A DNA stretch of 25,841 nucleotides from an uncultured Methanosarcinales archaeon (GTDB lineage: Archaea > Nanobdellota > Nanobdellia > Woesearchaeales > CAZOXR01). Location of the stretch: NCBI GenBank assembly GCA_964583885.1, contig CAZOXR010000002.1, positions 1 through 25,841 on the forward strand. Direction: 5' to 3'. Shown here piece after piece: positions 4,011 to 25,841 of the stretch (position 1 is its first letter; the number at the start of each line of letters is the position of its first letter). A model generated the notes under the pieces. That model saw nothing but the letters and a program-made list of their open reading frames with translations. It did no database searches and was not told the origin of the DNA. A program made the position numbers and the translations under genes.

Positions 4011-5090
4011 TTATTTTTTCTTCTTGGCTTTACTTTTCCTACTTTTTTTGGATAATCTTCCAGTTAAGAACCCCAATAATAGACCTATGCTAAATAATAT
4101 TACTGCTTTTACTATTATCTCTTTATTTGTCTTTTTTTCTATGATGATGTGGGGCTTTTCTTTGAAATACATGTCTAGGTTGCTGAGTTCTAGAGCATAT
4201 TCCAGATAAAGCAAAGTAGAATATTTATCAGATTCTTTTAGTGAATCAGCATACTCATAGTAACTATAACCTAAAACAGGAAAGATGTCTTTTTTTTGCT
4301 GCTTAGCAAGATTTCTTTTTATTATCTTTAGTTTCTCTTCAATTAAAATATCAATCTGGTCTTCTCCAATACCAACAAGATTGAGTATGGAATCTGCTTC
4401 TGCTTTTGTTTTGCTTGCTTTAAACAGGCAAAGCTCATAATTGCTATTATAAAAATCTTCATAAGCCAGATTAAGCTCTTTTTTTATACTTTCAATATTT
4501 AGTATAGATAAATCAAGATATTGATATCTTTCTTCTGCTTCTGATAATTTGTCCTGGCAGGATTTTTTTAGAATTTCTTTATTCATGTTAAATTCTTTGC
4601 CTCTATGATCAAAGAACGCAAGCCAGAGGTATGCTGAATAGACCCTTTCTGCAGCATATACTAAATCATTAATATCTGTTTCATTTAAATTTTCTTCAGC
4701 TTTTTCAAGATAATCTTCAGCTTCTATAATCCTCTCCTTTACTATAACATATGCTTCAAGGTCAGTTATTGTTTTGATTTCTTTTCTGCTTATTGCCTTA
4801 TTCAATTCATCAATATTCCCTCTTGCTATCGAGATTCTTGTTTCTTTATTATTCTTTGATAAATTTTGAAGCATATTCAAAACATAGCTAAATTTTGTAT
4901 TTGCCCCAAAAAAATAGCTTGCAGAAGAATAATGTCTTTTTTCCTTGAATACTTCTTCTCCTTTTTTTGTAAGATTAATAGCTGTTTTTTCTATTTCTTT
5001 TAATTCTTCATTTTCTTCTTCTTTGATTAATGAAATACTTTTTTGCAATTTGTTGCTTCTTTTATAAAGATCAATTGCCAATTCCTTCAT
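4011..5090 (-). CDS. C-terminal part (helical region plus C-terminal TM anchor) of an interrupted Lon-like S16 surface protease
   Basis: In frame with 5118..5780: ...YSE*VIDQKYLETMKELA...; helical region, TM (IIVKAVILFSIGLLLGFLTG) and a Lys-rich stop-transfer tail. Confidence 0.75.
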   Translation of the reverse strand: MKELAIDLYKRSNKLQKSISLIKEEENEELKEIEKTAINLTKKGEEVFKEKRHYSSASYFFGANTKFSYVLNMLQNLSKNNKETRISIARGNIDELNKAISRKEIKTITDLEAYVIVKERIIEAEDYLEKAEENLNETDINDLVYAAERVYSAYLWLAFFDHRGKEFNMNKEILKKSCQDKLSEAEERYQYLDLSILNIESIKKELNLAYEDFYNSNYELCLFKASKTKAEADSILNLVGIGEDQIDILIEEKLKIIKRNLAKQQKKDIFPVLGYSYYEYADSLKESDKYSTLLYLEYALELSNLDMYFKEKPHIIIEKKTNKEIIVKAVILFSIGLLLGFLTGRLSKKSRKSKAKKKK

Positions 5091-5117
5091 TGTTTCTAAG
5101 TATTTTTGGTCTATTAC

Positions 5118-5780
5118 TTACTCGCTGTACTCCCTTTCTATTCTTTTTCCTGTGAACTCGTAAATAACGCTATTAAGGTTAGAAACTTCTTTTATTTCAA
5201 TTCCTAGCTCTTTTCCATACTCAAAGATATCTGTTTTATTTGTAGAGTTTGTTATATTTAAGAAATCCTCATCAGAAAACCTCTCTCCAATAGGTATAAG
5301 AACTTTTTTTATGTTTTGCTTTTTTGCAGCATCTATCTTAGCTTTTAAGCCGCCAATTGGCCCAACTAGGCCGCCAGAATTGATTGTTCCTGTTATTGTA
5401 ACATTTTCATCCAGAGCAATATCTTTTAACATTGCTATTGTTAATGCTGAGACTGCTGCTCCTGCTGATGGCCCTCCAATAATTGCTGATTCTGCTGTTA
5501 TTTTATAGATAAAATCAAAGTTATCACAGTTTATATCCAAATAATCACACGCAACCTGTTTTGCGAATCTTGTAGACATCTGTGTGTCTATTTTTGTCAG
5601 TGGAAAGATTTCAATAAAGACTCTGCCAGAACCAGGCTGTATTTCCAGATAAAGATCTGCAGGGCTTCCTTCATACACTCCATTTGCCTCTTTAACTGCC
5701 AATAGTTTTAGATGCCCTTGCTTTGCTGCTGCTAAAGGTATTATCAGCAATAAGATTATCAGCAGGATTGTTTTTTTCAT
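5118..5780 (-). CDS. Secreted Lon-type (MEROPS S16) protease domain without AAA+ module; N-terminal part of an interrupted ~589-codon gene
   Basis: Signal peptide MKKTILLIILLLIIPLAAA; GPSAG serine and GGLKAK lysine 43 residues apart, as in E. coli Lon S679/K722; TGTI...G.VGPIGG motif. Confidence 0.85.
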   Translation of the reverse strand: MKKTILLIILLLIIPLAAAKQGHLKLLAVKEANGVYEGSPADLYLEIQPGSGRVFIEIFPLTKIDTQMSTRFAKQVACDYLDINCDNFDFIYKITAESAIIGGPSAGAAVSALTIAMLKDIALDENVTITGTINSGGLVGPIGGLKAKIDAAKKQNIKKVLIPIGERFSDEDFLNITNSTNKTDIFEYGKELGIEIKEVSNLNSVIYEFTGKRIEREYSE

Positions 5781-5799
5781 TTGGTATGTGGAGAAATTA

Positions 5800-5870: not shown

Positions 5871-6677
5871 CTATTTATTTATACCATCATCTTCTCTGAA
5901 ATTGCCTCTGTTTATCTCCTGTTTAGGTGTTTTTCCAAATAATCCTTTTAGCATGGTCTTAAGTCTTGGGTCTTTGTATTCTTCTCCGATTAAAGCAGCA
6001 GCCAGTTTTTTGTACTCAACAGTCGCATCCGATTGTTTATGTAAAGTACTTGGAATATTTTTTGATAATGCTTCTAAGATATTTACTTCATGAGGAAGAA
6101 CAGCCAAAACATTACAATCAGCAGCTTTTTCTATTTCATCTAAACTTAATTCAAAATTTTTGTTATATACTTTATTGAGAATTAAGCCTGTTATGTTTGT
6201 TTTTCTTTGCTTAGCCAGTTTAACAGCCCTTAGGGTTGTGCTTAATGTAACATGGTCTGGAGTTGTAACAACAAACAACTCATCACTTGCTATCATTGTT
6301 GCCAAAATTTCCTCATTTAATGTTGGCGAAGAGTCTATTAAGACAACATCATAGTCATCTTTTAATTGTTGTATTTTATATTTCAATCTATGAGGATTTA
6401 TCTTTTTATAGAGCAATGCTCCAGGCATTATGTGAAAACCATGTTCTGTTTCATAAATAGCTTCATTAGCATTGGCTCTGTTGTTTAAAACATGATGCAA
6501 AGTAACCTCAGGATTTACAAAACCCAAATGTAGGGCTAAGTTTGGAGCAGAAAAATTAGCGTCTATTAGTAAAACTTTTTGTTTGAATTCATTAGCTAAT
6601 GCAGCACCTAGCGCAGTTACAGTAGAAGTTTTTCCAACCCCTCCTTTTATAGAGATTATCCCAATAGTTTTTCCCAT
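5871..6677 (-). CDS. minD: MinD/ParA-family ATPase (MinD-like)
   Basis: Deviant Walker A KGGVGKT, LLIDANFSAPNL, VLIDSSP, VVTTPD, ILNKV; near-C-terminal amphipathic segment LKTMLKGLFGK resembling a membrane-targeting sequence. Confidence 0.85.
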   Translation of the reverse strand: MGKTIGIISIKGGVGKTSTVTALGAALANEFKQKVLLIDANFSAPNLALHLGFVNPEVTLHHVLNNRANANEAIYETEHGFHIMPGALLYKKINPHRLKYKIQQLKDDYDVVLIDSSPTLNEEILATMIASDELFVVTTPDHVTLSTTLRAVKLAKQRKTNITGLILNKVYNKNFELSLDEIEKAADCNVLAVLPHEVNILEALSKNIPSTLHKQSDATVEYKKLAAALIGEEYKDPRLKTMLKGLFGKTPKQEINRGNFREDDGINK

Positions 6678-15600: not shown

Positions 15601-17292
15601 AGAATCATATAATGTTCCAGTTGATGTTGTAAACACAACTGACAAGTTATTCTGCATAAAGTCATAAACTTCACTTAGTGTTCTTGTTTCATTAATCAGG
15701 ATACTTCCACCATAGCTATAGACAAAGGTAACATCAGAACCATTTTGGTTATCATTGAACCAAATTTCACCTGTGTCGTAGCTTATATTGAATTCACCAT
15801 TATCATCAGGCGCGCCTGTAACTTCTGTTAGTTTAGTTCCGTTTGTAGTATTATCCCAACCAAAGACAGCAAAGTATTCTGATTGTGTAATCGGATAATT
15901 GTCTATTGTACAATTATCTCCACAGTCAGACTTAATCTCGCTTCCGTAACTGACTTTTGTTGGAGCTGTGTACGTAATTCCAGTCTCATTTCCTGCGCCA
16001 ACAACGAATGCTGCAACTCCTAACTGGACTTCCTCAGATGTTTTTGCAGTTAAGATCTTAAGCGCTTCTGTGAATGATTTCTCAAAGTACCTTATGTATA
16101 ATGTAAATGGTCCTACGTCAGTAGAATTACTTAGGGTAGTTGCATTATAGGTAACAGATGTAAAGTTCTGAGTAACTATCTCGCCTTTTGGGCTGAGCTG
16201 AGTTATAACATCAAATACAGTATCTCCTGATTCATCAAGTAATTTAGCACTGACATTAGCTATGCCAACACCTGCAGTATCAGTTACCTTAAGATCATAT
16301 GTATATTTTCTATCAAAAGAGCCATTTTCAATCCCTATCCATGTAAAGTTCCATGTGGTTGAGTCAATATTTCTTATGCTGCCTCCAGCACCATCAGATG
16401 ACCATCCAAAGCCCTCCTTGAAGTTCAATGTCCTTGTGCTGGATTCTAAGATATCTCCACTCTGAGTTCCACTATCCCCTAAAATAATGTCAACATAAGA
16501 ATCATATAAACTTCCAGTTGTGGTTGTAAACACATCAGACAGGTTAGCCTGCATATAATCATATATATTTGACAAAGTCTTCTCTCCAGTAATCCTTATA
16601 GAGCCACCATAACTGTAAACAGCCCTTACTATAGCCGTTTCATAACCATCATCAAATGTAACATTGCCTGTTGCATAATCAATAGTATACTCACTGGATG
16701 GAATCTTTTTACCAGTTGAGTCATTGTACACATTAAAGAACTCTGATTGTGTAACAGGGATATTGTCCAATATAATGTGATCATCTGTACCAACTGTTTC
16801 ATTCTCTCTACTATCATAACTAACTTCAGTTGGAGCAGTATAATTAGTCCCATTCTGAATAGATGCATTTACTAAAGTTAAAACTGCAAATGCATTAGTA
16901 GATAGCTGTGTTTCTTCATCAGTCTTTGTACTTAACACCTTATATGCATCAACAAAACTCTTTCCGTAGGTCTTTATCTTCTGAGTAAATGGACCAATGT
17001 CAGTCATTGTGTTAGAATCAGAATACACATAAGTGCCATATGTAAATATCTGGCTAGGTATCTTACCAGAACCATTTGTAAGCTCATTGAATACAAGATC
17101 GCCATGCAAATCCTTAAGGTTAATAGTTACATTTCCAAGAGCAGTACCGCCAGTGTCAGTTACAGTCAGATCATATGTATACTTTCTAAAGAAAGTGTCA
17201 TTATCTGCTTTCCATGTAAACTGCCATGTATCTGATTCAACGTTTATTGTAGTGCCGTTAGCACCTCCAGCTGACCATCCAAAGCCACTATC
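6679..17292 (-). CDS. Giant multidomain surface protein lacking its own N-terminus: repeated ~295-aa modules, Ig/MG2-like domains, helical stalk, TM helix and ~600-aa cytoplasmic E/K/R coiled coil
   Basis: Frame is open from 17292 (after TGA 17293-17295) to TAA 6679. The track start 17109 is an internal TTG (same codon reads ...NLKDLHGD... in the second copy). No signal peptide; TM YWPIILIILSVLTIFAYLV at ~8530-8590; many N-x-S/T sequons. Confidence 0.85.
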   Translation of the reverse strand, partial: DSGFGWSAGGANGTTINVESDTWQFTWKADNDTFFRKYTYDLTVTDTGGTALGNVTINLKDLHGDLVFNELTNGSGKIPSQIFTYGTYVYSDSNTMTDIGPFTQKIKTYGKSFVDAYKVLSTKTDEETQLSTNAFAVLTLVNASIQNGTNYTAPTEVSYDSRENETVGTDDHIILDNIPVTQSEFFNVYNDSTGKKIPSSEYTIDYATGNVTFDDGYETAIVRAVYSYGGSIRITGEKTLSNIYDYMQANLSDVFTTTTGSLYDSYVDIILGDSGTQSGDILESSTRTLNFKEGFGWSSDGAGGSIRNIDSTTWNFTWIGIENGSFDRKYTYDLKVTDTAGVGIANVSAKLLDESGDTVFDVITQLSPKGEIVTQNFTSVTYNATTLSNSTDVGPFTLYIRYFEKSFTEALKILTAKTSEEVQLGVAAFVVGAGNETGITYTAPTKVSYGSEIKSDCGDNCTIDNYPITQSEYFAVFGWDNTTNGTKLTEVTGAPDDNGEFNISYDTGEIWFNDNQNGSDVTFVYSYGGSILINETRTLSEVYDFMQNNLSVVFTTSTGTLYDSYVDIILGDEENGTGILNESATRTVNFEDGFGWSAGGANGTTINVESDTWQFTWKADNDTFFRKYTYDLTVTDTGGTALGNVTINLKDLHGDLVFNELTNGSGKIPSQIFTYGTYVYSDSNTMTDIGPFTQKIKTYGKSFVDAYKVLSTKTDEETQLSTNAFAVLTLVNASIQNGTNYTAPTEVSYDSRENETVGTDDHIILDNIPVTQSEFFNVYNDSTGKKIPSGEYSVDYETGNVSFDDGYETAIVRAVYSYGGSILVTGNKTLSQIYDYMQANLSDVFTTGTGSIYTSYVDLILGIGSSNKTLIFDSQADWNVGTFSHTNTTPGGSVTLNMTGGEYASNGTFTSQIFDANSSADWKNVTWDNVSVPKTNVTFQLRSCYDVSCTGSVFVGPDNTNTTYFINNTGEDLSAIGNISDNQFFQFRAFLKTNDSDLTPQLLWVNVSYKKFQQVGRIKEPSAKTLNFEDGYGIGGTNTSSYSVNLQSSDWQFTWKGPTNGTFYQQYSFKLKVIDSAGNAIEDANVSLTDSAGNLVFSKLTNEGGNITEYEITYATYNYTNGSDATTFTPHVLSITKTSYVTSSGQVVVTSPQDLLYTLSTSCDPDSDYNYALLYPMTFNNVTEKITVWGSNGSDGHTAIGSNESDPITFEHIFQFGKAKYGSCAVTNPASGTYAVLVPLDIGNTTSELNTTYVKTSGQSVDFAKQVRMLPNARLISGLLSEDENPYSGSTLSFSGVDTWNVSEEGQLYLLNDSYLELYDSFLLHKLIVNESNYSMLYWWGDIIAKRSSFENWWTIRFLSDNNTLEDIVITNVGEGFYPAINQTGTLDTIKSRKTEEEGVYFAYGVDVNITDLTITETNGSHVRVLNYTGTANLLNPSLNWSNITWTTGSFSGTINRKYTYDLTTTDSAGSALPNVSIKIIDVKGDSLFDLKSDSDGEIPQQTLTRSIFDYTYKTGNDQGPHTLYLKKYGKSFQEIAKEFSAATVETTQLADNPFTTSDRTEVQAKNISGIVFNPPGVISYEDEVYTNFTKTGDLNNTPITQSEFFTVFGWDNVTNGTKLTLVTDTPDANGEYSINYETGRLTFFNNQSEQDTNVIPAYSYGGNITIVTGTASADCITMQDLYDFMQANLSDVLTTVDGTAYTSYVNLIIGNITTKGGCIKDSTKSLSFEDGYTYSFSSVGGYIDLLGTTSGSGSGGLPLNIFDDVGTQFNPGDMVRIFSTTVDSDGALVAADVTVTVYYPNETTLSTGSSTSISTGRFRYNFTLPSTVPTGTYRVDIDATYSDDEVYDNLAFKVEAASSGGGSTGGLPLNIFNTMGHSYQPGADVIISSTTVNSSGHLVNASVNITIKKPDGTTQVSSWSDLQSTGRFEYSFEAAASPQGTYTADISANYSGYEIHDTEAFIVSVNAGSGNASFPPRVHVEAPAVIEVNTPFNIVVLTTDEDGVVTDCSSNTSNITIRDTMNNTKVVDDQPMDKFGTGLYNYSYSTPKQSTYVAIAECTVSAVEYIGIKEFSTEDVSSSGGSGSSTGGLPLNLFSSVGPFYSPNDEIAVFATITNSSGVLVNATVNVSVFYPNSTTLNSSQATELALGRYKYNYTLPSSAPIGTYEVRIDANYSGSEMHDTLTFIVSSAIEDIKANLTQIIDAIDNTIIPYLQDINKTVNDSYNYLQNTIFPKVNDANSTISDVLNKWGTYNASTIYIKINDTYNDTRNLLTKWGTYNAELLYNVSNLTYTQTISIYNDMATASALANVQTNVTWLINNVATEENITTIISKIDIIDSNVSTLITRTDCSNPTNSVLCDYLNDINTTVDWLKDNVATQSNISDIQSNLTEIITRLTEINTTTQNSYDYLQNTIYTSLNETWNNTERILSYIGTPSDSESANTLFGEHAYTQNRIADIQVNLTDLKTIVTQINVTTFEINNTVSSILTTVNNLTDLHQCLADPNSTICSILNSIESTVDSLQLGVTIVDFEIDSLAAVSPRYASEEVQIEATFSYSNGSLASPASYNLTVLYPNGAVWFSYNTGFNDDNNDGVYIWDEVSLSDDPTTGAYSVHLWANDSSGREASKAAMFRVATGGPYSVTLDCPTSSDVGSSLGCTLTIIDEGDFEVESTCDVWVDTDKNEQRDTGEPQKRDSQETDPEENVTKVYSMDVPSSHPTGTYLAWVSCSYAGSAQPPSTAYDSLILTSAAAPEEAPAPSGGPGKKIIKAIVIEEEEVPEEITLFDVKIKILPRYTEIPAGSALAAEISIYNIGEISTKEKDTKVTYLIKDLDGKIVVSDDETIAIKDKVEFVKEISVPKDLESGEYTFVVEIRYEDKFAIGSARFNIIEEISIEKPAPPKAPSYWPIILIILSVLTIFAYLVHETKKRRDESEPETEITHKFRPKKRLERDVSIKTLKELYIKSEEEELKKELEKERRKTEELRKREEKERRRDEERLKKEVQVELRRQEERKKFEEEEIKAEELKRREESTRIEEQKKRDNEERLKKQLEEEKRKQEELRKEEELIKQIELRKLEKHKRKLTEQIKLEEERKAREEMLKKELEEERRKQERLRKQEELIKLEELKRLEKGSIMAEELRKQVEVKRIEEDEIEDEEERLKKELEDELRKQEDLRKQVVVKRGKEERTSEDDRRKAEELRKEEEFKKVEEEKRKQEERRKQEELKKREELIKLEELKKLEEEKRKVEERGAKEELEEVKTTLEELRKQEEERLKKELEDERRKQEELKKQEEEKKKLEELRKQEEEVKAREENLKKELEEERRKTEELRKKQEEERKAEEQRKQEEEIKAREENLKKELEEEKRKQEELRKLEEGRLKKEIEEEKTKQEEIRKEEESRKQEELKKIEEEKRKADEESLKKELEEERRKTGELRRRQQDEKKAEDERKIVGERKTREEKLKKELEEEKRKQEEIKITEEQKRNEDEKKRDEEERLKKEIEVEKGKEYKPLTTKVIEEAHPKRIERAHDNKGLVSKLKEVYA
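6689..6695 (-). promoter_or_regulatory. Shine-Dalgarno site for minD inside the 3' end of the giant gene
   Basis: AGGAGGT 11 nt upstream of the minD ATG; the giant-gene TAA (6679-6681) is 1 nt from that ATG. Confidence 0.7.
6790..8420 (-). repeat. Imperfect coding repeats in the E/K/R-rich cytoplasmic tail
   Basis: About 12 copies of an LKKELEEE(R/K)RKQEEL-like motif; a 41-aa duplication (123-nt offset, 7224 vs 7347); an exact 30-bp copy at 7591 and 7921. Confidence 0.85.
10453..10551. repeat. 21-bp exact direct repeat encoding KWGTYNA twice (78-nt period)
   Basis: AGCATTATAAGTTCCCCATTT at 10453..10473 and 10531..10551. Confidence 0.85.
14927..15516. repeat. 590-bp perfect direct repeat, copy 1
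   Basis: Base-for-base identical to 16697..17286 (offset 1770 nt = 590 codons); similarity continues with mismatches to about 14710/16480. Confidence 0.95.
16697..17286. repeat. 590-bp perfect direct repeat, copy 2
   Basis: Identical to 14927..15516; identity ends abruptly after AAAGCC (17286), followed by ACTATC here versus GTCCTC in copy 1. Confidence 0.95.
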
Positions 17293-20200
17293 TCAGAAGA
17301 ATTTGCCTGTGAATAATCAGTTCCATCTGAAGTTGTTATCTGGCACTTTACAACATCTTCTGCTGATGTCTCATCACTAACCAGAGTGAACTGGTCTTTT
17401 TGGTCAGAATATATAGCATATATCTGTGAAGCAGACAGGCTTCTGTTAAATACCCTCACTTCGTCTATTAAGCCATCAGCATCTCCTCCATGGTCATCTA
17501 TTCTTGACCCAATAACACAACTGACAGTAGCAGAAATAGCAGTATTGAAAGCATCATAAGTCACATTTTTATCTTTTGTGCCATTAAGATACATAACAAC
17601 ATCCTTGCCATTATCTAATGTAATAGCAACATGAGTCCATACATCTAAAGTGACATTTGACTTCCATTGGAATGCAGTTGCGCCCCATCTTTCAATGCCT
17701 AGTGTCTGGAATGTTCCTGCAGGACCTCCAGTAATAGAAAACATCTTGTAAGTATTTGTTGTGCCATAAGAGAACCAAGTATCATAGCCTCCCATTGCTC
17801 TTGGCTTCATCCAAAACATTATAGTTCTTGAACTGTTGCCTGTTGGAAGGTTTGATGTTCCGCAGTCTATATAGTCATTACTGCCATCAAAGTCATAAGC
17901 TCCAGAGCCATTAATGCCTCCTGTCTTGTTCCACGAAGAGCCATTTATCCATCCATGATTGTCTTCTCCGCTAAAATCATAGGTCCAGTTAGTAGAATTA
18001 TGCTTTGTATCAAAAGACATATGTAATTGTGTCATTGAGATATTGTTAATAAACCAGTTATAGCTGTTAAATAATGCATCATCATCTTCATCTGATTGTG
18101 TTGTATTGATGCATGTCAGATTAGCATAGGTCATATTCTTTGGGTGGGTTGTTGAGTTCAATTTTGGCGCAGAGATTGTTGGTGGCTCATTATAATCCAT
18201 AGTGACATTCAGAACATACTCGCTGAATAACTTATCTTTTGAAGTTAAGCTTACATTATACTGCACAAACCTTGCTTCTGGATTTGTTGAAGCCTGAATC
18301 CAATCAGTATACTTCAAAGCAGATGTTTCATAAAGTTCTTTTACTTCTGTTGTTGTCAAAGATTGGTTGAATACCATAACTTGGTCTATTGAACCGTTCC
18401 AATAACTTCCCACTGTATTTGGTCTTCTTCCAATACCTACATCTATAACTGCTCCAGGAATATCTCCACCAGCATTATTCTCACTATTAGTTTGTAGTCC
18501 GTCATAGTAAGTATAATAATCATCACCGTTTCTGACACCGCAATAATGATGCCATTCATCTGTTACAGGAGTTATTCTAAAACCAATATTTGCACCATTC
18601 CTATTAAAGTAAGCACAACCTACTGAAGAACACCTAATTATTTGTTCATTAAGTCCTGTACTACCATCTGTTTCTACAATGTTTCTTTCAGTTCCATCTA
18701 ATCCATTAGCATTCGCCCAAGCACAATGAGTATAGTTACTTGAACCTACAATTAAATTATTGCTGTCTGATACTAAAATCCAATCATTTACACCATCAAA
18801 ATCACACCCAGCATCAATGAAGCCTGTTGTGTTCTGGCAAGTTGCACCTAATATTTCCCCATGATTTTCGTAGCCTGAAGAATCTAAAACATGAGTTCCA
18901 TTAAAGTAAGCTGTTCCATTATCCATGCTCCAAAAGCCGGTTAAGTTCTCAAGATTAACATTAGAGCCATTATAGATTGGAGAATAGCTATCTGTTGCAT
19001 TGCCTTCTGAAACTCTTATTTTGGTTACTGTTGCGTTTGCAAAAGAATCATAGTCTGGATGTGTGCCATTTGTTGCATTAAACATCTCTGAAATCTCTGT
19101 TGCTGATAATGAATAATTAAAAATCATAGTTGAATCTATTGTCCCATTAAAACTTGAGCTGCCTCCTTCTGCACCAATCCATAAATTTCCAGTAATATCA
19201 TTTGAACTTAGATTTCCTCCTCCACTTCCCTCTAATACTCCATCAACCCAAATCTGTCTGCCTGTTCCATTCCAGATAAAAACAAGATGATACCATTGTT
19301 CTTTATCAAAAGCTCCTGCTGCACCTGCATATAACCAACCTGCATCAGTATCCCATATCCCTACTTGATCTGAATTATCATAACCCCATATTATTCTTGG
19401 TGTGTCTGAACTATATAATCCCAACATAGAATTGGATGAGCCTGATAGAGTAGGGTAAACCCATTGACTTATACTTATAGCGTCTCCATTAAAAACAGGT
19501 GAAGTTACAGTAATAGAATTACCACTACCCCCTTTAAAATTCATTCCATATTCCCCATTATGTGCATCGCTAGTAAATGTTGCACCAGTGATTGTTCCGT
19601 CATTACTATAAGTACTTTCATCATAAACTGTTGAGCCAGAACCTTCTTCAAATCTCCATAAGCCAAGAATAGAATCATTTACATTAAAGTCTCTTGAAGA
19701 GTTTAAAGAAACATTAAGGATCTTTCTGTTTGTGCCTATGTCTAATGGTTTTGCAACAGAGAACCATCCAGATGTAAGTGACTCATTTATTGTAACAGAG
19801 TAATCAGGTGGTGACTCACGCCAGTCTTTTCCAAAGTAAAGACCAGTATAGCCTGTTGTATTAGAGTCAATAACTTGTATTACTGTTGGATCAACAATAT
19901 AGTCAAACTCAACAGAATCACCAACAATCTCTAAATCAAATGTTGAATAACTGTCATTCAAAGCAGTTAAATAAACCTTATAATAAGATTCCGCTGATAT
20001 ATTATTGAATGTAGCTATTAACTCATTTCCTTGCTCAGTATAGACCGCTATACTAGAGCCTGAATCAGACCTTGCGTAAATTGTAATATCTTTAGAACTA
20101 TCAAGCGCTTCTTTGAAAGTAGCCCTTACATAATGTCCAGCAGGTATTGGCTCTGACCAATAGTCATCCTGCGCCTTCACATGTTCATAAATATCAGATA

Positions 20201-22073
20201 CAAAGTTTCTATCTGAATCCAGATGCTCTGCAGCGCTAATCTCAATAATTAGCTCATATGTCTGGCTGGATAGTGAAGGAACAACCCATTCAATATAGTC
20301 AATCAATGAGTTACCATTAGTGTCATAAGCATCAAAGCTGGCTACTTCTCTGCCAGAATCCTTTAGCCAGTAAAGTTTAATTTGTCCTTCTCTTGCTTCT
20401 GTTGGAAGTGAAGTATAGGCTAGAATGTTAGTATAATGCACTGAAGAGCTAATTACAACCTGTTTCCTGCTAGAACTGATTTCTTCTTCAACTGCTTCTG
20501 GAGCTGGTGTTTCATACTCTATTTCAACTTCATCTACTTCTTCTTCTATTATTAATTCAGTAGTATCTTGAGATGCAACTGTATCAACTACTGCAGAAGC
20601 AGTTATCAAATTATAAGTATCAACATAATTAACCCTGTTCTTTGTCTTTATTTTTGCTTCCTTTACTTTTTCCTTTACCCTCTTATAAACAAACTTGTTA
20701 ACAGAAACATTAGTTGCTTCTTTTGGTAAGATCACAGTAAGGTTGCTTGTTTTGTTTGCAAGCTTAACAATCTTCTTCCATTTGACTGGCTTGCCAATAA
20801 CAGCACTATACTGTATTACTTCTTCTTCAGAAACAGTGGCATTACTAACCTTAGCCAAACTTACAACTTCAAGCTCTTCTAAAACAGAGTAATCAACACT
20901 GTCAATCGCTAAAGTAGCATTAGAGACATTAAATATCAATGTATAGAATGTCTCATTGAACCCAGATAACAAACAAGTATCAACACAAACATCATTAAAG
21001 CTTATCCTATCATCAGAGAAAGTTGCATTCAAGCTTCCCCATTCTGAGTTATGTATATCTGAATAAGGGTTCTCCAAACTAGCATTATAATCAACATAAA
21101 GCACTTGAGAAGAAATAACATTATTAACAGAAGCTCCATGCTGGCTATACGCAGATAAAAAGTCTTCATCCCATTCCAAAGATGTAGGCATTAATCCAAT
21201 AAAGTTACAGCATGCCTCAGCACCATAACAAACAGTTGTTATCTCTTCATTATCAGCTGAATAAGTCTCCCATTTTGTACAAACCTTAGAAAAGTCAACA
21301 TTCCAGCTAAAGTCAGTATTCTCAACTGTAAAGTCAATTATACCATCACTTGCCTCAACACCATCATCATCTGGATCATATGCAGTACCAGAAGCATAGT
21401 CAAGATTAATTATTATATTTTTAGTGATATTTGTTTCATTTATTGGTATAGTTTCATTTATTATTGATATATTTTCTAATGGTTTTGTCTCATTGATTGT
21501 TTCGTTTATTGGTATTGTTTTATTGGTTTGATTTGTTTCATTGGTTATTTCACTAGTTTCATTTGAAACAGCCAATCCAGTTATGCCGGCAATCCATTCC
21601 CCTACTAGGGTATCACTATCAAACACAACATACTTAACGCCTTTATGCAGGACATAAACCTGCGCATAACCATCCTTGCTAATAGAACCACTTATTTTTA
21701 ATGATCTCAAATCACCAGGATTCTCTAAGAACCAAGCATGTTCAGAATTAGAATCAATTACTAAACCCAAATCCTGCGTATAATTGTTCTCAACAGTTAT
21801 CGTTGTATATCCTGTTAGTGCTGGCTTAAAGACAAAGAACCCTACAGCTAAGAATATAATAACTAACAAAGCTAGGGGTATCTTTAGATGCTGTTGGCTT
21901 CTTTCTTTGTTTTCATAAGAATCAAGGTCTTTTTGTGATTTAGAAATATGCTCATTACAAAAGTCAAGCTGATCATTTAACAGAACCATCTCTGCTAAAA
22001 TCTTTCTTTTTGTGGATAAACCTAACTGAATATCTTTCCTCAATTTGTCTCTTTTTTTATTTACTGAATGCAT
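17244..22073 (-). CDS. N-terminally membrane-anchored surface protein with three LamG/concanavalin-like domains; probably the N-terminal part of the giant gene
   Basis: TM IPLALLVIIFLAVGFFVF after a charged N-terminus. LamG signatures LGLWRFEEGSG...W.H.VFIW...IDSTMIFN.SLS, LTGFWSMD...FDGVNDWI...IDQVMVFN, and HMSFD...FDGSNDYID...IDEVRVFN. The last ~14 codons are an out-of-frame reading of repeat copy 2. Confidence 0.85.
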   Translation of the reverse strand: MHSVNKKRDKLRKDIQLGLSTKRKILAEMVLLNDQLDFCNEHISKSQKDLDSYENKERSQQHLKIPLALLVIIFLAVGFFVFKPALTGYTTITVENNYTQDLGLVIDSNSEHAWFLENPGDLRSLKISGSISKDGYAQVYVLHKGVKYVVFDSDTLVGEWIAGITGLAVSNETSEITNETNQTNKTIPINETINETKPLENISIINETIPINETNITKNIIINLDYASGTAYDPDDDGVEASDGIIDFTVENTDFSWNVDFSKVCTKWETYSADNEEITTVCYGAEACCNFIGLMPTSLEWDEDFLSAYSQHGASVNNVISSQVLYVDYNASLENPYSDIHNSEWGSLNATFSDDRISFNDVCVDTCLLSGFNETFYTLIFNVSNATLAIDSVDYSVLEELEVVSLAKVSNATVSEEEVIQYSAVIGKPVKWKKIVKLANKTSNLTVILPKEATNVSVNKFVYKRVKEKVKEAKIKTKNRVNYVDTYNLITASAVVDTVASQDTTELIIEEEVDEVEIEYETPAPEAVEEEISSSRKQVVISSSVHYTNILAYTSLPTEAREGQIKLYWLKDSGREVASFDAYDTNGNSLIDYIEWVVPSLSSQTYELIIEISAAEHLDSDRNFVSDIYEHVKAQDDYWSEPIPAGHYVRATFKEALDSSKDITIYARSDSGSSIAVYTEQGNELIATFNNISAESYYKVYLTALNDSYSTFDLEIVGDSVEFDYIVDPTVIQVIDSNTTGYTGLYFGKDWRESPPDYSVTINESLTSGWFSVAKPLDIGTNRKILNVSLNSSRDFNVNDSILGLWRFEEGSGSTVYDESTYSNDGTITGATFTSDAHNGEYGMNFKGGSGNSITVTSPVFNGDAISISQWVYPTLSGSSNSMLGLYSSDTPRIIWGYDNSDQVGIWDTDAGWLYAGAAGAFDKEQWYHLVFIWNGTGRQIWVDGVLEGSGGGNLSSNDITGNLWIGAEGGSSSFNGTIDSTMIFNYSLSATEISEMFNATNGTHPDYDSFANATVTKIRVSEGNATDSYSPIYNGSNVNLENLTGFWSMDNGTAYFNGTHVLDSSGYENHGEILGATCQNTTGFIDAGCDFDGVNDWILVSDSNNLIVGSSNYTHCAWANANGLDGTERNIVETDGSTGLNEQIIRCSSVGCAYFNRNGANIGFRITPVTDEWHHYCGVRNGDDYYTYYDGLQTNSENNAGGDIPGAVIDVGIGRRPNTVGSYWNGSIDQVMVFNQSLTTTEVKELYETSALKYTDWIQASTNPEARFVQYNVSLTSKDKLFSEYVLNVTMDYNEPPTISAPKLNSTTHPKNMTYANLTCINTTQSDEDDDALFNSYNWFINNISMTQLHMSFDTKHNSTNWTYDFSGEDNHGWINGSSWNKTGGINGSGAYDFDGSNDYIDCGTSNLPTGNSSRTIMFWMKPRAMGGYDTWFSYGTTNTYKMFSITGGPAGTFQTLGIERWGATAFQWKSNVTLDVWTHVAITLDNGKDVVMYLNGTKDKNVTYDAFNTAISATVSCVIGSRIDDHGGDADGLIDEVRVFNRSLSASQIYAIYSDQKDQFTLVSDETSAEDVVKCQITTSDGTDYSQANSSEIVALDGQLEVLTALQ

Positions 22074-22180: not shown

Positions 22181-22372
22181 CTATTTTACTAACCATAAAT
22201 TTACACCTGCTTTTTTCAGCCTGTCAACTTTTCCTTCTATAACCAGCTCTAGCATGTATTTATCAGCTGTATTCCACGAAATCTTGAAATGAGAAGCTAG
22301 TTCAGAAGTAGTTACCACTCTGTTTTTCTTTACAAACTTGAGTATCTCTTCCCTTATATTATGATATTTCAT
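22181..22372 (-). CDS. Small winged-helix DNA-binding protein (stand-alone wHTH, DeoR/FaeA-like)
   Basis: IREEILKFVKKNRVVTTSELASHFKISWNTADKYMLELVIEGKVDR: HTH pattern followed by a wing. Confidence 0.8.
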   Translation of the reverse strand: MKYHNIREEILKFVKKNRVVTTSELASHFKISWNTADKYMLELVIEGKVDRLKKAGVNLWLVK

Positions 22373-22375
22373 AAG

Positions 22376-22436
22376 TTATTACATATCTTATTACATATGA
22401 ATATTCATAATATTGAGGAGTATTTAAATCTTTCTG
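22376..22436 (-). promoter_or_regulatory. BRE/TATA promoter with candidate operator upstream of the wHTH-giant gene unit
   Basis: Minus strand AGAAAG-A-TTTAAATA (TATA 22421-22428); perfect 14-bp palindrome TATGAATATTCATA (22396..22409); 11-bp direct repeat TTATTACATAT at 22376 and 22388. Confidence 0.6.
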
Positions 22437-22457
22437 AATGGGTAGAATTCTAGGGAT

Positions 22458-22486
22458 CAAAAATTAGAAAAAAAATAAGAAAATAT
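22458..22486 (-). terminator. Possible oligo-U archaeal terminator after the TM-JAMM gene
   Basis: A run of U-rich tracts on the minus strand immediately after the stop at 22495. Confidence 0.35.
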
Positions 22487-22494
22487 ATCATATC

Positions 22495-23826
22495 TTACCT
22501 GACTTCCCACTTGATTGCACGAAAATCAAGAGCTTCGTGTTCCCCAGGCATAACTAGGATATAAATTCCAGTATCACAATGAATGGCATTAATAATGGGC
22601 TCAGGGTTTTTCATTTCCCCCCACGAGAATATATCATCTTGTGATGGTTTACAATCCCCATTAATGTGGGAATGAATCGAACCCAATGAATTCTCTGTTT
22701 GGCAAGCAGGATCCTCATGTGAGATTACAACATCTTCTCCCTGGTGGAATAATTCTGGTGCTATTAGGTCATTGACATATATCTCATTATTAATTTTATC
22801 TCCAATCAAGCAAAAAAGATACTCCCCTTTATTTGCAGAGTATTCATTGTTTAACTTATCTAAGACTTCTTTTGTGAAAATAACAGACGTATCATCTCTA
22901 TACACCATAATAAAATCAGATTCTTCTACTTCCTTTACTTGGGGAGCAAAATAGTGGGTAATAAAAGAAAAAAGCAGATAGAGTGTTAGCAGTAATATGG
23001 TAATTGCGATGATTGTTATAAGGAATACCCTTCTGCTTTTCTTTTCCTGTTTCTCAATACCTGCAGTAGATCTTAAGAAATCTTTCATTAGCTGATTCTG
23101 ATAGAAAAACCCATAGCCTAATACTATGTAAGTTGAAAGCCAAAAGATTTCAATGATATCACCAGAAAGATAGGAACTGAAATTAAAAGCAAAGTAAACA
23201 TCAAAAATAAATACCGGTATAAAGGCAATTGCGATTATTAACCACCCAATAGATAAAGAACCTTTTTTAAATGCCAAAGAAGTCTTTACTAAAAGGAAAA
23301 TCCCAAAAAGAAGAACAAAATCAGCCACAATGTACCCATTATTAAGCACATTCTCTAATAGTGATGCTCCTCCGAAAACGACTGGAATAATATTCAGATA
23401 GATAATAGCGAAAATTAAAAATATTATAAATAAATAAATAAATTTCTTTCTCTGTTTTCTTAATTCTGGATCTGAAATAGAAGAAACACTAAAAAAAGCC
23501 AATATTAAGGGAATATACCCTAAAAACCTTAATAACTCAGAGTAATAGCGTACAGATTGGGAGAATATAATCCAGATTAATTCTGCCAGAAACCAGCTTG
23601 CAATTCCCAATACTATTAAAAATAATGTTTTTCCTTGCAAACTTTTTAATGAGTATATCCTTACAGCATATATTCCTAATACTGCTGCTGAAAAAGAATA
23701 AAAAACAGCTAAAAAGTCGGTTAAGAAAATATAGTTATCACCACCAAATCTTGTAAGATACATTACAATGGTAGCTAACAAAACTATGGCCATTACAATA
23801 AAACCTTTCTTATTATTATCTATCAT
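22495..23826 (-). CDS. Polytopic membrane protein (~9 TM, sensor-like) fused to a C-terminal JAB/MPN+ (JAMM) metalloprotease domain
   Basis: About nine hydrophobic segments in aa 1-295. C-terminal GEYLFCLIG (Glu) and HSH-INGDCKP-S-QD-D give an exact E...HxH-x7-S-x2-D JAMM motif. Confidence 0.8.
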   Translation of the reverse strand: MIDNNKKGFIVMAIVLLATIVMYLTRFGGDNYIFLTDFLAVFYSFSAAVLGIYAVRIYSLKSLQGKTLFLIVLGIASWFLAELIWIIFSQSVRYYSELLRFLGYIPLILAFFSVSSISDPELRKQRKKFIYLFIIFLIFAIIYLNIIPVVFGGASLLENVLNNGYIVADFVLLFGIFLLVKTSLAFKKGSLSIGWLIIAIAFIPVFIFDVYFAFNFSSYLSGDIIEIFWLSTYIVLGYGFFYQNQLMKDFLRSTAGIEKQEKKSRRVFLITIIAITILLLTLYLLFSFITHYFAPQVKEVEESDFIMVYRDDTSVIFTKEVLDKLNNEYSANKGEYLFCLIGDKINNEIYVNDLIAPELFHQGEDVVISHEDPACQTENSLGSIHSHINGDCKPSQDDIFSWGEMKNPEPIINAIHCDTGIYILVMPGEHEALDFRAIKWEVR

Positions 23827-24569
23827 TTTGCTTTAACATACTTTCCGTATAACTCCCTTGTCTGTTTCTTTGCATTTTCAGGTCCAACTAATTTTGATAA
23901 AATAGTTTCGAATTCGTTTAAAAGTAATTCTGGTTTTTTTTCACGGGATTTCTTTATTATCTTACCTGCGTTTGCTCCAAACAAATTCTCCATTAGCTTG
24001 ACAGCCTCTCCTTTAGCCAGGGACACTTTAGCTCCCAAGTTAGTTACTTTATCTACAAGCATTTCTATTTGTCCAACAACCTTTTTCCCATAATCATTTT
24101 CCAACAGCAAAAAGAATATCTTTTTCTTATTGACCCTTGCAAACATTATCAGGTCTTGGATATATCTGTACATAATTGGGTGGTTGCCATACAGGAGGAT
24201 GTTAGATAAAGAATCAAAAATAATACCATCAACACCAGCATTCAAAGCTTTTTTTGCTGCTATATTGATTTCAGTATATGCTTGAGGAGAAGACACATAT
24301 ACTACATTGCCCTTTTCTTTGGACTTGCCTTCTTTTTGTGAGACACAATCTATAAATAAAATCTTATCTATGTCTATCTTCTTTTTCTTTAAATCTTTTG
24401 AGAAATTGCTATAGCTCTTGTCCAAAGATATTAAACCAAATTTTTTCCCCTTCTTCTTCAAATGTAGAGAAATTATTTTTTCTAGAAAGGAAGCACGTTT
24501 GTTAGGGGAAGAAACAAAAAGAACAATGTCATTTTCCATGCTCTTTTTAATAGTTGACTCGACTTTCAT
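23823..24569 (-). CDS. Inactive KaiC/RecA-fold ATPase-like protein with a small helical C-terminal domain
   Basis: RecA-fold strands (ISLDKSY, ILFIDCVS, IIFDSLSNILLY, MLVDKV) but no GxxGxGKT; ATGA overlap with the TM-JAMM gene. Confidence 0.7.
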   Translation of the reverse strand: MKVESTIKKSMENDIVLFVSSPNKRASFLEKIISLHLKKKGKKFGLISLDKSYSNFSKDLKKKKIDIDKILFIDCVSQKEGKSKEKGNVVYVSSPQAYTEINIAAKKALNAGVDGIIFDSLSNILLYGNHPIMYRYIQDLIMFARVNKKKIFFLLLENDYGKKVVGQIEMLVDKVTNLGAKVSLAKGEAVKLMENLFGANAGKIIKKSREKKPELLLNEFETILSKLVGPENAKKQTRELYGKYVKAK

Positions 24570-24615
24570 AGGATTATTCCAAGGATATTAAAATTGTCAA
24601 ATTCTTTAATGAAAT

Positions 24616-25806
24616 TTATCCTTTTTTCCCAATTTCACCATATATTTCCTGTTCTGGATAAACCTCTATACCATCATCAGTTATCTGCATAGCAACTATC
24701 TTTTTTTGGTGTTTTGCTCCTCTAAGCTTTAATACCTCAATTGCGCTTTCCCTTATATTTCCTCTTTGTATGTTGTACAAAACAACTACACCATCTGCTA
24801 AAAACTCCTCTACACCTGATTCTGTTAGTTTAACAGGGATTTCAGTTGATTCTGTTATTAAAAATGAAGTGGCGCCTAATTCTTCAAAAAGCCTGAATAA
24901 CTGTTCAATGTATATTCTATAGGTCTCTTCTTTTCCAACAAATGCTGCTGCAATAGCAGATAAAGAATCCAGAATAACCCTGTCTGGCTTAAAATTGCCA
25001 GGAAATAAAACAGGTTTAACATCAATTAATAGCTCACCTTTTGCCTTTTCCAGCAAAGCTTCAACCTGCCTTGTTATAGCGAATGGGTCATATTTTTGGA
25101 TTACTAGTTTGCCCTCTCTTTCTAATTTGTCAGGATTCCAATTAAAATCACGCATATGCTCCTTTAATCTTGTTATCGATTCTTCAAATGTCATATAGAG
25201 GCATTTTTCTCCATTAATGGCACCATAGTTTAATGTTTGTAAACCAAATATTGTTTTTCCAGAACCAGGACCTCCGCAAAGTAATGTAGATGTACCTTTT
25301 GGGACTCCTTTTTCCAATAATTTATCAAAACCAGGAATTCCTATTTTCATCCACGTATTTTTTTTCTGCTTTTCTGGATGTTTGCTCTTTGTTATTATCT
25401 TTTTAATAACCTCTCTCTGTTCCTCAATCTGTTCTTCGTGCTCTTTTTTTGGCTGTTCAGCTATTTGTTGAACACTTTCAGTGTGTTCTTTTCGCTCCTC
25501 ACCCTCTTTTTCGACATCTTTTTTTGCGTGTTTAGTTGCCTTAATGACCCCTTTTATGAATCCCTGAATGCGCTTTTTTTGTTTCTTGATATGTTTTTTA
25601 TGCTCTTCCTTTTTTGGATGCTTTGCTTTTTTTATTATCTGCTTTTTTTCTTTCTTTGCTGGCTTCTTGTGCTTCTTGGTTTTTTTAACAATACCTTTTA
25701 AGAACTTACCAATAAAGTCTTTCTGCTTCTTTTTATGCTCTTTCTTTTTTGGATGTTTGGCTTTTTTTATGACGTGTTTTCTTTTTTTCTTTGTTTGTTT
25801 TTTATG
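24616..25806 (-). CDS. Single-domain KaiC-like (RecA superfamily) ATPase with a long Lys-rich N-terminal extension
   Basis: Walker A GGPGSGKT, MTFEE, Walker B VILDSLS, EEFLADGVV, EVLKLRG. The frame stays open 152 codons upstream of ATG 25350 to a TAA at 25807-25809 (...KHPEKQKKNTW-MKIGIPGFD); the same repeat continues beyond that TAA to the window edge. True start undetermined. Confidence 0.8.
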   Translation of the reverse strand, partial: HKKQTKKKRKHVIKKAKHPKKKEHKKKQKDFIGKFLKGIVKKTKKHKKPAKKEKKQIIKKAKHPKKEEHKKHIKKQKKRIQGFIKGVIKATKHAKKDVEKEGEERKEHTESVQQIAEQPKKEHEEQIEEQREVIKKIITKSKHPEKQKKNTWMKIGIPGFDKLLEKGVPKGTSTLLCGGPGSGKTIFGLQTLNYGAINGEKCLYMTFEESITRLKEHMRDFNWNPDKLEREGKLVIQKYDPFAITRQVEALLEKAKGELLIDVKPVLFPGNFKPDRVILDSLSAIAAAFVGKEETYRIYIEQLFRLFEELGATSFLITESTEIPVKLTESGVEEFLADGVVVLYNIQRGNIRESAIEVLKLRGAKHQKKIVAMQITDDGIEVYPEQEIYGEIGKKG

Positions 25807-25839
25807 TTAGTTTTTTTTATTATTTATTCCTTTAATGAA
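25420..25839 (-). repeat. Lys-rich coding repeats (45-48 aa period) in the KaiC N-terminal extension
   Basis: Units start FIKGI (25839), FLKGI (25704) and FIKGV (25560); IKKAKHPKK.EHKK occurs twice plus ITKSKHPEK; 39 of the first 82 residues after the TAA are Lys. Confidence 0.8.
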
Positions 25840-25841
25840 TC

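Follow-up and report, generated by a model that had tools for sequence, protein, structure and literature searches.

According to one proposal, the signalling hubs native to archaea are mainly KaiC-like ATPases. To our knowledge, the links between such hubs and the membrane or the cell surface are largely uncharted, and no experiment has defined a KaiC receptor. Makarova, Galperin and Koonin reportedly put forward, in 2017, archaeal hubs made of a KaiC-like ATPase and an inactivated paralog (iKaiC) of the MEDS type. We describe here a group of three genes (the trio) that would offer a concrete architecture for the membrane link. The trio lies on a stretch of 25,841 nucleotides (the window), which makes up all of C2, a 25.8-kb contig in an assembly of 0.89 Mb and 59% completeness; the contig ends at 25841. 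It consists of three co-oriented open reading frames (ORFs) on the minus strand, encoding a KaiC-like protein, an iKaiC, and a membrane protein with an eight-transmembrane-helix (8TM) domain and a JAMM domain (the 8TM-JAMM protein). DNA of the contig was present in marine and seawater metagenome runs, and its carrier is a small marine DPANN-type archaeon. We regard the trio as a candidate membrane end of archaeal KaiC-based signalling, and tentatively propose that its products form a KaiC/iKaiC signalling complex tethered to the membrane, in which the membrane subunit bears a zinc protease on the outer face of the cell.

The pairing of KaiC with iKaiC has already been proposed as an archaeal signalling arrangement, to go by the citations in PMC5847659 and PMC4858521. 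Such hubs and the trio have in common a single-domain KaiC-family ATPase with a dead paralog, and relatives that are clustered with receivers and histidine kinases. The trio differs in that a helical module dedicated to docking is attached to its dead paralog, and in that the partner is an eight-helix membrane protein with a JAMM domain predicted to be extracytoplasmic. ArlH/FlaH also shares the KaiC-like RecA fold; among solved structures FlaH matches the iKaiC best, and it works at a membrane machine. However, the trio has no ArlI/ArlJ context, FlaH binds ATP whereas the iKaiC has no Walker A, and the score against the ArlH model is far under its cut-off.

For the JAMM domain, the closest described proteins are PfJAMM1, AfJAMM, HvJAMM1 and Cap3 of CBASS, which share its fold (Z 11-15), its zinc site E..HxHx7Sx2D and the lack of Ins-1 and Ins-2. 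Unlike these, the JAMM domain of the trio is anchored by a transmembrane (TM) helix, predicted to lie outside, endowed with four invariant cysteines and fused to a receptor-like domain, and it has no Ubl, E1 or CD-NTase partner. The 8TM domain resembles the HisKA_7TM and MASE-type input domains in being a multi-helix bundle found in a signal-transduction genomic setting. It differs from them in having no sequence-level Pfam match, in its eight helices that resemble a 4+4 repeat, and in the absence of a fused kinase or cyclase, output passing instead through a separate small helical protein or the iKaiC. FtsEX follows the same logic of cytoplasmic ATPase, membrane transducer and extracellular hydrolase, but as a functional analogy only: the folds are unrelated (ABC versus KaiC), and in the trio the hydrolase is fused to the transducer.

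No description of the 8TM family, the helical adaptor, the adaptor-iKaiC fusion or a membrane-anchored, apparently extracytoplasmic JAMM family was found in a literature search outside of which the 2017 proposal lay. A search on the DUF names and on extracellular JAMM in DPANN found nothing relevant.

The three genes and their products

The KaiC-like ORF as called occupies 24616-25350 (244 residues), the iKaiC ORF 23823-24569 (248 residues) and the 8TM-JAMM ORF 22495-23826 (443 residues), all on the minus strand. The first two are separated by a spacer of 46 nucleotides (24570-24615) in which no T-run of five or more was read, and the stop of the iKaiC gene overlaps the start of the 8TM-JAMM gene as ATGA at 23823-26. 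The ORF list and the reading of the sequence confirmed the three co-oriented genes, the 46-nucleotide gap and the ATGA overlap described in the initial annotation of this DNA. Close co-orientation of three genes is by itself within chance, and the weight of the argument rests on conservation.

The KaiC-like protein matched PF06745 with an E-value of 2.2e-52 (178.2 bits, cut-off 26.6). Its motifs are intact, with Walker A (GGPGSGKT) at residue 26, the glutamate pair (FEES) at residue 55 and Walker B (ILDS) at residue 126. On these grounds the called ORF (24616-25350) is predicted to encode the core of a RecA-superfamily ATPase of the KaiC family, of the single-domain archaeal type, much as first annotated. 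NCBIfam KaiC models also hit the protein, all under their cut-offs. Two narrower identities were rejected. The cyanobacterial clock KaiC has two tandem domains, not one, and the corresponding models gave 146 against a cut-off of 408 (NF006799) and 112 against 546 (TIGR02655). Membership of ArlH/FlaH, named in the initial annotation as an example of such ATPases, fails on the score of the ArlH model (NF052589, 34.3 bits against a cut-off of 215); moreover, no T2SSF gene was found in the 59%-complete assembly.

The called ATG of this gene, at 25350, is internal and not the true start. The frame runs open for another 152 codons, up to a TAA at 25807-25809, and contains no ATG, GTG or TTG in that stretch. 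Translated in frame, 25351-25806 (minus strand) gives a Lys-rich repeat extension; the called start was rejected because this open upstream part has homologs in the orthologs, as extensions at the N-terminus. The latter are about 125-190 residues long and end in the same EQRE.IKKII.KSKHP...W block (P0016, P0017). Within this subfamily, KaiC genes that are more remotely related (G192 and G030) also have N-terminal extensions. Around the TAA, all frames lack ATG, GTG and TTG. The Lys-rich repeat was covered 3-5 times by public contigs, which ended at 25773, leaving 25774-25841 uncovered, with a repeat-induced alternative join at 25529. The contig end at 25841, this low coverage and the ambiguity of the repeat all stand in the way of placing the 5' end of the gene. 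It may be noted that the repeat units in 25351-25841 are F(I/L)KG and KAKHPKK, and that the repeat continues beyond the TAA to the end of the contig.

The second gene encodes a RecA-like domain (residues 1-182; 24024-24569, minus strand) followed by a C-terminal helical adaptor module of about 60 residues (residues 185-248; 23826-24017, minus strand). The match to DUF7090 (E 2.2e-5, 24.7 bits) was slightly under the cut-off of 27; homologs of the iKaiC have precomputed DUF7090 matches. An AlphaFold model of the protein had a mean predicted local distance difference test (pLDDT) value of 80.8. When this model was searched with Foldseek, the best match in the PDB was FlaH (4YDS, E 2.3e-6), and PH0284 (template modelling score 0.56-0.60, root-mean-square deviation (rmsd) 2.6-3.1) and KaiC were matched as well. 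At the Walker A position the protein reads SSPNKRAS and the catalytic glutamate pair is missing; in alignment A2, none of the 15 homologs has GK[ST]. The fold and the lost Walker A point to an inactivated KaiC paralog, and bear out what had been said of this gene. No second iKaiC of the trio type was found in the 59%-complete assembly. The helical module forms four helices, has the conserved pattern LFG..A....P.LL..F..ILSKLVGPENA.K...LY.KY, and matched no Pfam family.

The 443-residue product of the third gene had no Pfam match. Its model, built from a 150-sequence alignment, reached a pLDDT of 90.7. Hydropathy, charge, the model (pLDDT about 90-98 in this part) and AFDB matches delimit an 8TM receptor-like membrane domain at residues 1-245 (23092-23826, minus strand). 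Foldseek matches in AFDB were to the N-terminal membrane domains of histidine kinases, of PAS-GGDEF proteins and of HisKA_7TM proteins (E 5e-7 to 5e-5; template modelling score by hit 0.65-0.72 for the small ones). For the window protein and five 8TM relatives, no Pfam profile of the HisKA_7TM or MASE type was hit at E ≤ 0.1; the likeness to these domains is one of fold and embedding only. Matches to solved structures were to GPCR-like bundles (Z 9-12) and were set aside, being too low to mean more than a common helical arrangement. In 8TM relatives, both halves match the same region of the profile hidden Markov model (L051, 5912-6721; L052, 5337-6065), which suggests that the eight helices arose by a 4+4 internal duplication.

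The 8TM domain is followed by a basic linker (KQEKKSRR) and a ninth TM helix (residues 246-293; 22948-23091, minus strand), assigned from hydropathy, Lys/Arg counts and the model, in which helix 265-293 has a pLDDT of 63-75. Motif, fold and profile place a JAMM/MPN+ metalloprotease domain at residues 305-443 (22498-22914, minus strand). Among 54 sequences, the residues of the motif E..HxHx7Sx2D were retained almost without exception: E335, H385 and D398 in all 54, S395 in 53 and H387 in 52. Four cysteines (C339, C375, C392 and C417) are likewise invariant or nearly so. Alignment of the modelled domain with VIA-align gave PfJAMM1 as a match with Z 14.7 (rmsd 2.4 Å over 119 residues), followed by Rpn11 (13.7), Cap3 (12.4, 23% identity) and AfJAMM (11.1), and Foldseek matches to the MPN fold had E-values of about 1e-5. 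The family profile matched Cap3 (4.3e-5) and AfJAMM (1e-4) in the PDB; against Prok-JAB/JAB of Pfam, relatives of the window JAMM scored up to 21.8 bits (cut-off 25), and the window protein gave no hit. These results support a JAMM domain of the MPN fold with a predicted zinc and catalytic site that is intact, and uphold the earlier description of the third product as a multi-pass, receptor-like membrane domain joined to a JAMM domain.

To decide which side of the membrane this domain faces, the loops were compared by hydropathy and Lys/Arg counts. The N-terminus, the loops 2-3, 4-5 and 6-7 and the segment after helix 8 are rich in Lys and Arg, and the alternate loops have 0-1 such residues. 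With the N-terminus inside and nine helices, an arrangement in which all loops fit the positive-inside rule, the C-terminal JAMM domain would therefore lie outside. The ectodomain is acidic (29 Asp/Glu against 11 Lys/Arg). Among single-helix TM-JAMM relatives, basic residues precede the helix in all nine inspected. Moreover, the complex model described below, which is independent of the charge topology, seats the soluble partner exactly on the loops predicted to be cytoplasmic. From the charge topology and the four invariant cysteines, the JAMM domain is probably located outside the cell, and not in the cytoplasm as first assumed.

Predicted docking of iKaiC and conservation of the trio

The initial annotation had suggested examining the paralog against the cytoplasmic loops of the membrane protein. 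When the two were modelled together, the iKaiC docked on the 8TM-JAMM protein with an interface score (ipSAE) of 0.69 (0.68-0.72 in three runs), and the best of three controls gave 0.00. In the calibration of the tool, 58 of 80 solved complexes attained this mark, as did 2 of 110 mismatched pairs; these counts are rough here as custom alignments were used. On the side of the membrane protein, the predicted interface comprises residues 57-59, 61-65, 117-120, 185-192 and 246-255; on the side of the iKaiC it comprises residues 194-239, wholly within the helical module. The model supports docking of the module on those four loops of the 8TM domain that are predicted to be cytoplasmic, and a physical complex of iKaiC and the 8TM protein is likely to exist.

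The distribution of the module provides a second line of evidence. Searches with the module profile found it elsewhere as a stand-alone ORF of 65-92 residues, directly upstream of 8TM genes, at nine other distinct loci (L001; L021 in G207; L022/L053 in G271; L054/55; L056; L091; L092; L093; L095). At L001, the start of P0011, an 8TM-JAMM protein 35% identical to that of the window, is overlapped by a gene for an 89-residue helical protein, which aligns to the module of the iKaiC (hhalign probability 82%, E 1e-5). The docking module thus appears either as a separate gene beside the 8TM gene or as the tail of an iKaiC. Such fusion and fission is classical evidence for a functional link, and from it the iKaiC would act on the 8TM protein through the module. 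As a separate observation, the 8TM gene of L005 is the sole close relative with no adjoining helical-module ORF; the 1.1 kb upstream of this 8TM-only gene (175-1276) holds no credible ORF, looks G+C-rich compared with its surroundings, and may be a structured RNA gene.

Close homologs of the 8TM-JAMM protein were few, about 15 among 5.8 billion clusters. The order of the trio was found in six diverged metagenome loci, with membrane proteins 53-67% identical to that of the window. L002, L003, L007/8/9 and L010/11 have KaiC (with the N-terminal extension), iKaiC and 8TM-JAMM in succession, and L004 has the same order, cut inside the iKaiC gene. The membrane gene of L010 as called stops after about 170 matching residues and may be frameshifted. 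Co-occurrence in six loci, together with the docking model, agrees with the initial proposal that the three genes belong together; the outcome that the initial annotation had named as refuting, genes that do not co-occur elsewhere and are predicted to have no interaction, was not what was observed. In further lineages (the contig of P0015, G412, G182 and G192) the iKaiC and 8TM genes overlap or abut. There is also a shorter clade with no JAMM domain, in one contig of which the 8TM gene overlaps an upstream gene for a 246-residue, weakly KaiC-like protein. A search of genome contigs with profile A1 returned pattern matches among which no relative was confirmed, and a search of metagenome contigs returned one locus only, already among those found.

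Some of these loci have other neighbours. At L003, a DUF7121 protein is encoded upstream of the trio (97-792), and two more short iKaiC-like genes, one paired with a receiver gene, lie downstream of it (4608-5784). At L007, the gene immediately upstream of KaiC in the trio (1680-2564) encodes a T2SSF platform protein of the PilC/ArlJ type, an arrangement seen in one lineage only.

Wider families and the proposed working of the trio

Profile A1 gave 909 hits among 1.84 billion representatives. Most were stand-alone 8TM proteins of about 260 residues; a second set consisted of single-helix JAMM proteins of about 175-200 residues. By embedding, the clusters closest to the 8TM family were from Nitrososphaerota and Thermoplasmatota. 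Among 301 sampled genomes of the class, the full profile was matched in 45 (G000 included), and at least 40 genomes matched on the TM9-JAMM part only. The stand-alone TM-JAMM proteins (L023-L049; G264, G154, G225 and others) have one N-terminal signal-anchor helix, an intact JAMM domain and the four invariant cysteines, and may be the first extracytoplasmic JAMM enzymes. No conserved neighbours of their genes, and no clue to a substrate, were found within 1.5 kb.

Of 401 genomes sampled across the phylum, 38 have 8TM genes, and these lie in a setting of signalling genes. A histidine kinase, receiver (REC), iKaiC or KaiC gene was present within 6 kb on either side at 15 of 23 8TM loci. Tight operons of the relatives include REC-iKaiC-kinase-8TM, REC-kinase-8TM, kinase-8TM-REC-REC, and REC-iKaiC-KaiC next to 8TM-iKaiC, and in relatives the 8TM gene directly follows sensor kinases of the dCache type. 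In five genomes that were checked, each with only 1-4 receiver genes, one receiver gene lay within 6 kb of an 8TM gene in every case; the sole receiver gene of G321 is about 1 kb from an 8TM gene (L091, G321:C2:79600-92400). This closeness of receiver and 8TM genes is beyond chance, though related genomes are not independent. Scarce receiver or kinase genes stand beside an 8TM gene also at L104, L105 and L051-L053. The initial annotation had stated that no kinase or receiver is present. This is true of the window itself, but relatives of its membrane domain adjoin histidine kinases and receivers, and a receiver gene is found elsewhere in the genome of the window (C29).

In the proposed complex, iKaiC would bind with its helical module to the four loops that the 8TM domain exposes to the cytoplasm, and the ninth helix would carry the intact JAMM domain to the opposite side of the membrane. 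By analogy with KaiC-type rings, in which dead and live paralogs associate, the RecA-like domain of iKaiC may contact the KaiC-like ATPase, the active partner. Whether KaiC is phosphorylated, or which nucleotide it holds, could then be relayed via iKaiC and the bundle of helices to the external JAMM domain, which would cleave peptide or isopeptide bonds in surface proteins. We hold such inside-out control of proteolysis, which is close to the gated proteolytic output put forward in the initial annotation, with nearly, though not quite, as much belief as doubt. It is favoured because the JAMM domain is an enzyme with intact catalytic residues and so suits an effector, because the fusion gives a regulator to an otherwise free-standing family of ectoenzymes, and because the 8TM relatives follow kinases that already have dCache sensors.

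Several points weigh against this proposal. The support is entirely computational; the complex model was made from unpaired alignments, so that its score expresses model confidence only, and the packing of the ninth helix on the bundle was modelled with lower confidence (pLDDT 63-75). The clade to which the trio is limited is narrow, with about 15 proteins, and KaiC is not obligatory for the 8TM-JAMM unit, since the locus of P0011 has no KaiC or iKaiC nearby. No genes for Ubl/SAMP or E1-like partners were found in the window or the related loci. We know of no characterised JAMM enzyme that is extracytoplasmic, all being intracellular. Finally, the likeness of the 8TM domain to the input domains of kinases and cyclases argues for sensing.

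Signalling in the reverse, outside-in direction would account for this last point. Here the sensor would be the 8TM domain, alone or together with a JAMM head that binds or cuts an external ligand, and the signal would pass via the adaptor-iKaiC to KaiC, whose Lys-rich N-terminal tail would act on DNA, RNA or other partners. We consider this possible, though on balance unlikely. In its favour, the structures nearest to the 8TM domain are N-terminal input domains, those of histidine kinases and of diguanylate cyclases; the KaiC subfamily retains a long basic N-terminal extension, a possible output arm; and KaiC ATPases have been proposed as input-receiving hubs in work cited in PMC5847659. On the other hand, invariant catalytic residues are odd for a sensor, the 8TM relatives sit behind kinases already equipped with dCache sensors, and no DNA-binding domain was detected in the KaiC extension.

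The three genes might also be no more than neighbours in a narrow clade, that is, independent housekeeping proteins comprising a KaiC paralog, an inactivated one and a surface protease fused by chance to a membrane protein. The restriction of the trio to about six closely related lineages, the stand-alone TM-JAMM genes with no conserved neighbours and the locus of P0011 with neither KaiC nor iKaiC are in keeping with mere synteny. We find it improbable in view of the fusion and fission of the helical module, the translational overlap of the iKaiC and 8TM genes, the specific complex model and the adjacency of iKaiC and 8TM genes, which is repeated in other families of the order.

Slightly less probable still is an ArlH/FlaH-like accessory role, in which the KaiC pair would regulate the platform of a type IV pilus or archaellum-like machine and the membrane protein would be part of the apparatus. 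A T2SSF gene does lie directly upstream of KaiC in L007/L008, KaiC-family ATPases are frequent in archaeal type IV pilus loci (PMC4858521), and FlaH is the best PDB match of the iKaiC. The ArlH model, however, gave 34 bits against its cut-off of 215, T2SSF adjoins the trio in one of six lineages and was not found in this incomplete assembly, and pilins and a secretion ATPase are absent from all loci. An anti-virus defence module, with a Cap3-like JAMM working with an ATPase, is very improbable: Cap3 is among the best matches of the JAMM domain (profile E 4.3e-5; Z 12.4, 23% identity), but PADLOC results were marginal (JAB at E 0.0039, no stretch of which passed, and mad8 at 2e-5, confined to the P-loop), genes for a CD-NTase and for E1/E2 are absent, the JAMM domain is predicted to be outside the cell, and the neighbours are signalling genes.

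A JAMM domain working outside the cell would broaden the known biology of JAMM/MPN+ proteins. Since DPANN-type episymbionts depend on contact between surfaces, a regulated protease at the surface could bear on attachment to and detachment from the host. More broadly, though we hold this with considerable doubt, the small helical protein and the 8TM protein may constitute a widespread, undescribed archaeal transducer pair, coupling events at the membrane both to iKaiC/KaiC and to two-component systems. In the clade of the trio, a cytoplasmic ATPase would then control an extracellular JAMM isopeptidase. On this reading the JAMM enzymes concerned would be the first that are extracytoplasmic, the archaeal KaiC network would gain its first defined membrane port, and the protease might trim or release the giant adhesins that attach DPANN cells to their hosts. 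Placed beside the rare kinase and receiver genes of reduced genomes, the 8TM family with its small helical protein may outweigh the trio in general use.

The adjacent adhesin genes

On the 3' side of the trio, on the same strand, lie genes for a winged helix-turn-helix (wHTH) protein, two giant proteins and an archaeal MinD, and the gene row of the initial annotation, with the trio upstream of a unit of wHTH, giant adhesin and minD, was thereby found again on the minus strand. The wHTH protein (22181-22372, minus strand) is a stand-alone 63-residue protein with a FaeA/DeoR-like HTH match (E 3e-6), and its gene is situated between the trio and the gene for a Laminin_G_3 protein of 1609 residues (17244-22073, minus strand). 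A wHTH gene beside the trio is not conserved in the other loci. Next follow an MG2 protein of 3476 residues (6679-17109, minus strand) and the archaeal MinD (5871-6677, minus strand).

The spacer between the trio and the wHTH gene (22373-22494) contains a run of eight T residues, 20 nucleotides after the stop of the 8TM-JAMM gene, and the sequence TTTAAATA about 50 nucleotides before the ATG of the wHTH gene. We infer that the T-run may be an archaeal terminator and that the latter may be a TATA-like promoter box. Giant Laminin_G_3 proteins adjoin the trio in three of the six loci (the window, L004 and L007), with the genes convergent, on the opposite strand, in L004 and L007. The giant proteins of these two loci are related to that of the window only through the LamG repeats, and L002 has a different surface protein upstream. 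It had been suggested that the trio may control the adjacent surface apparatus. With the T-run and the TATA-like box intervening, and with LamG proteins in three of six loci and on the opposite strand in two, the link between trio and adhesins is weak and suggestive at best, as these genomes are rich in such genes. The idea that the JAMM domain releases covalently attached adhesins (through thioesters) was dropped, as neither giant protein has a CxEQ motif.

It may also be noted that directly downstream of the MinD gene, at 5118-5780 of the window, where the row of giant-adhesin genes ends, there is a gene for a 220-residue protein in which only the C-terminal (S16) domain of Lon protease is present (E 2.5e-13).

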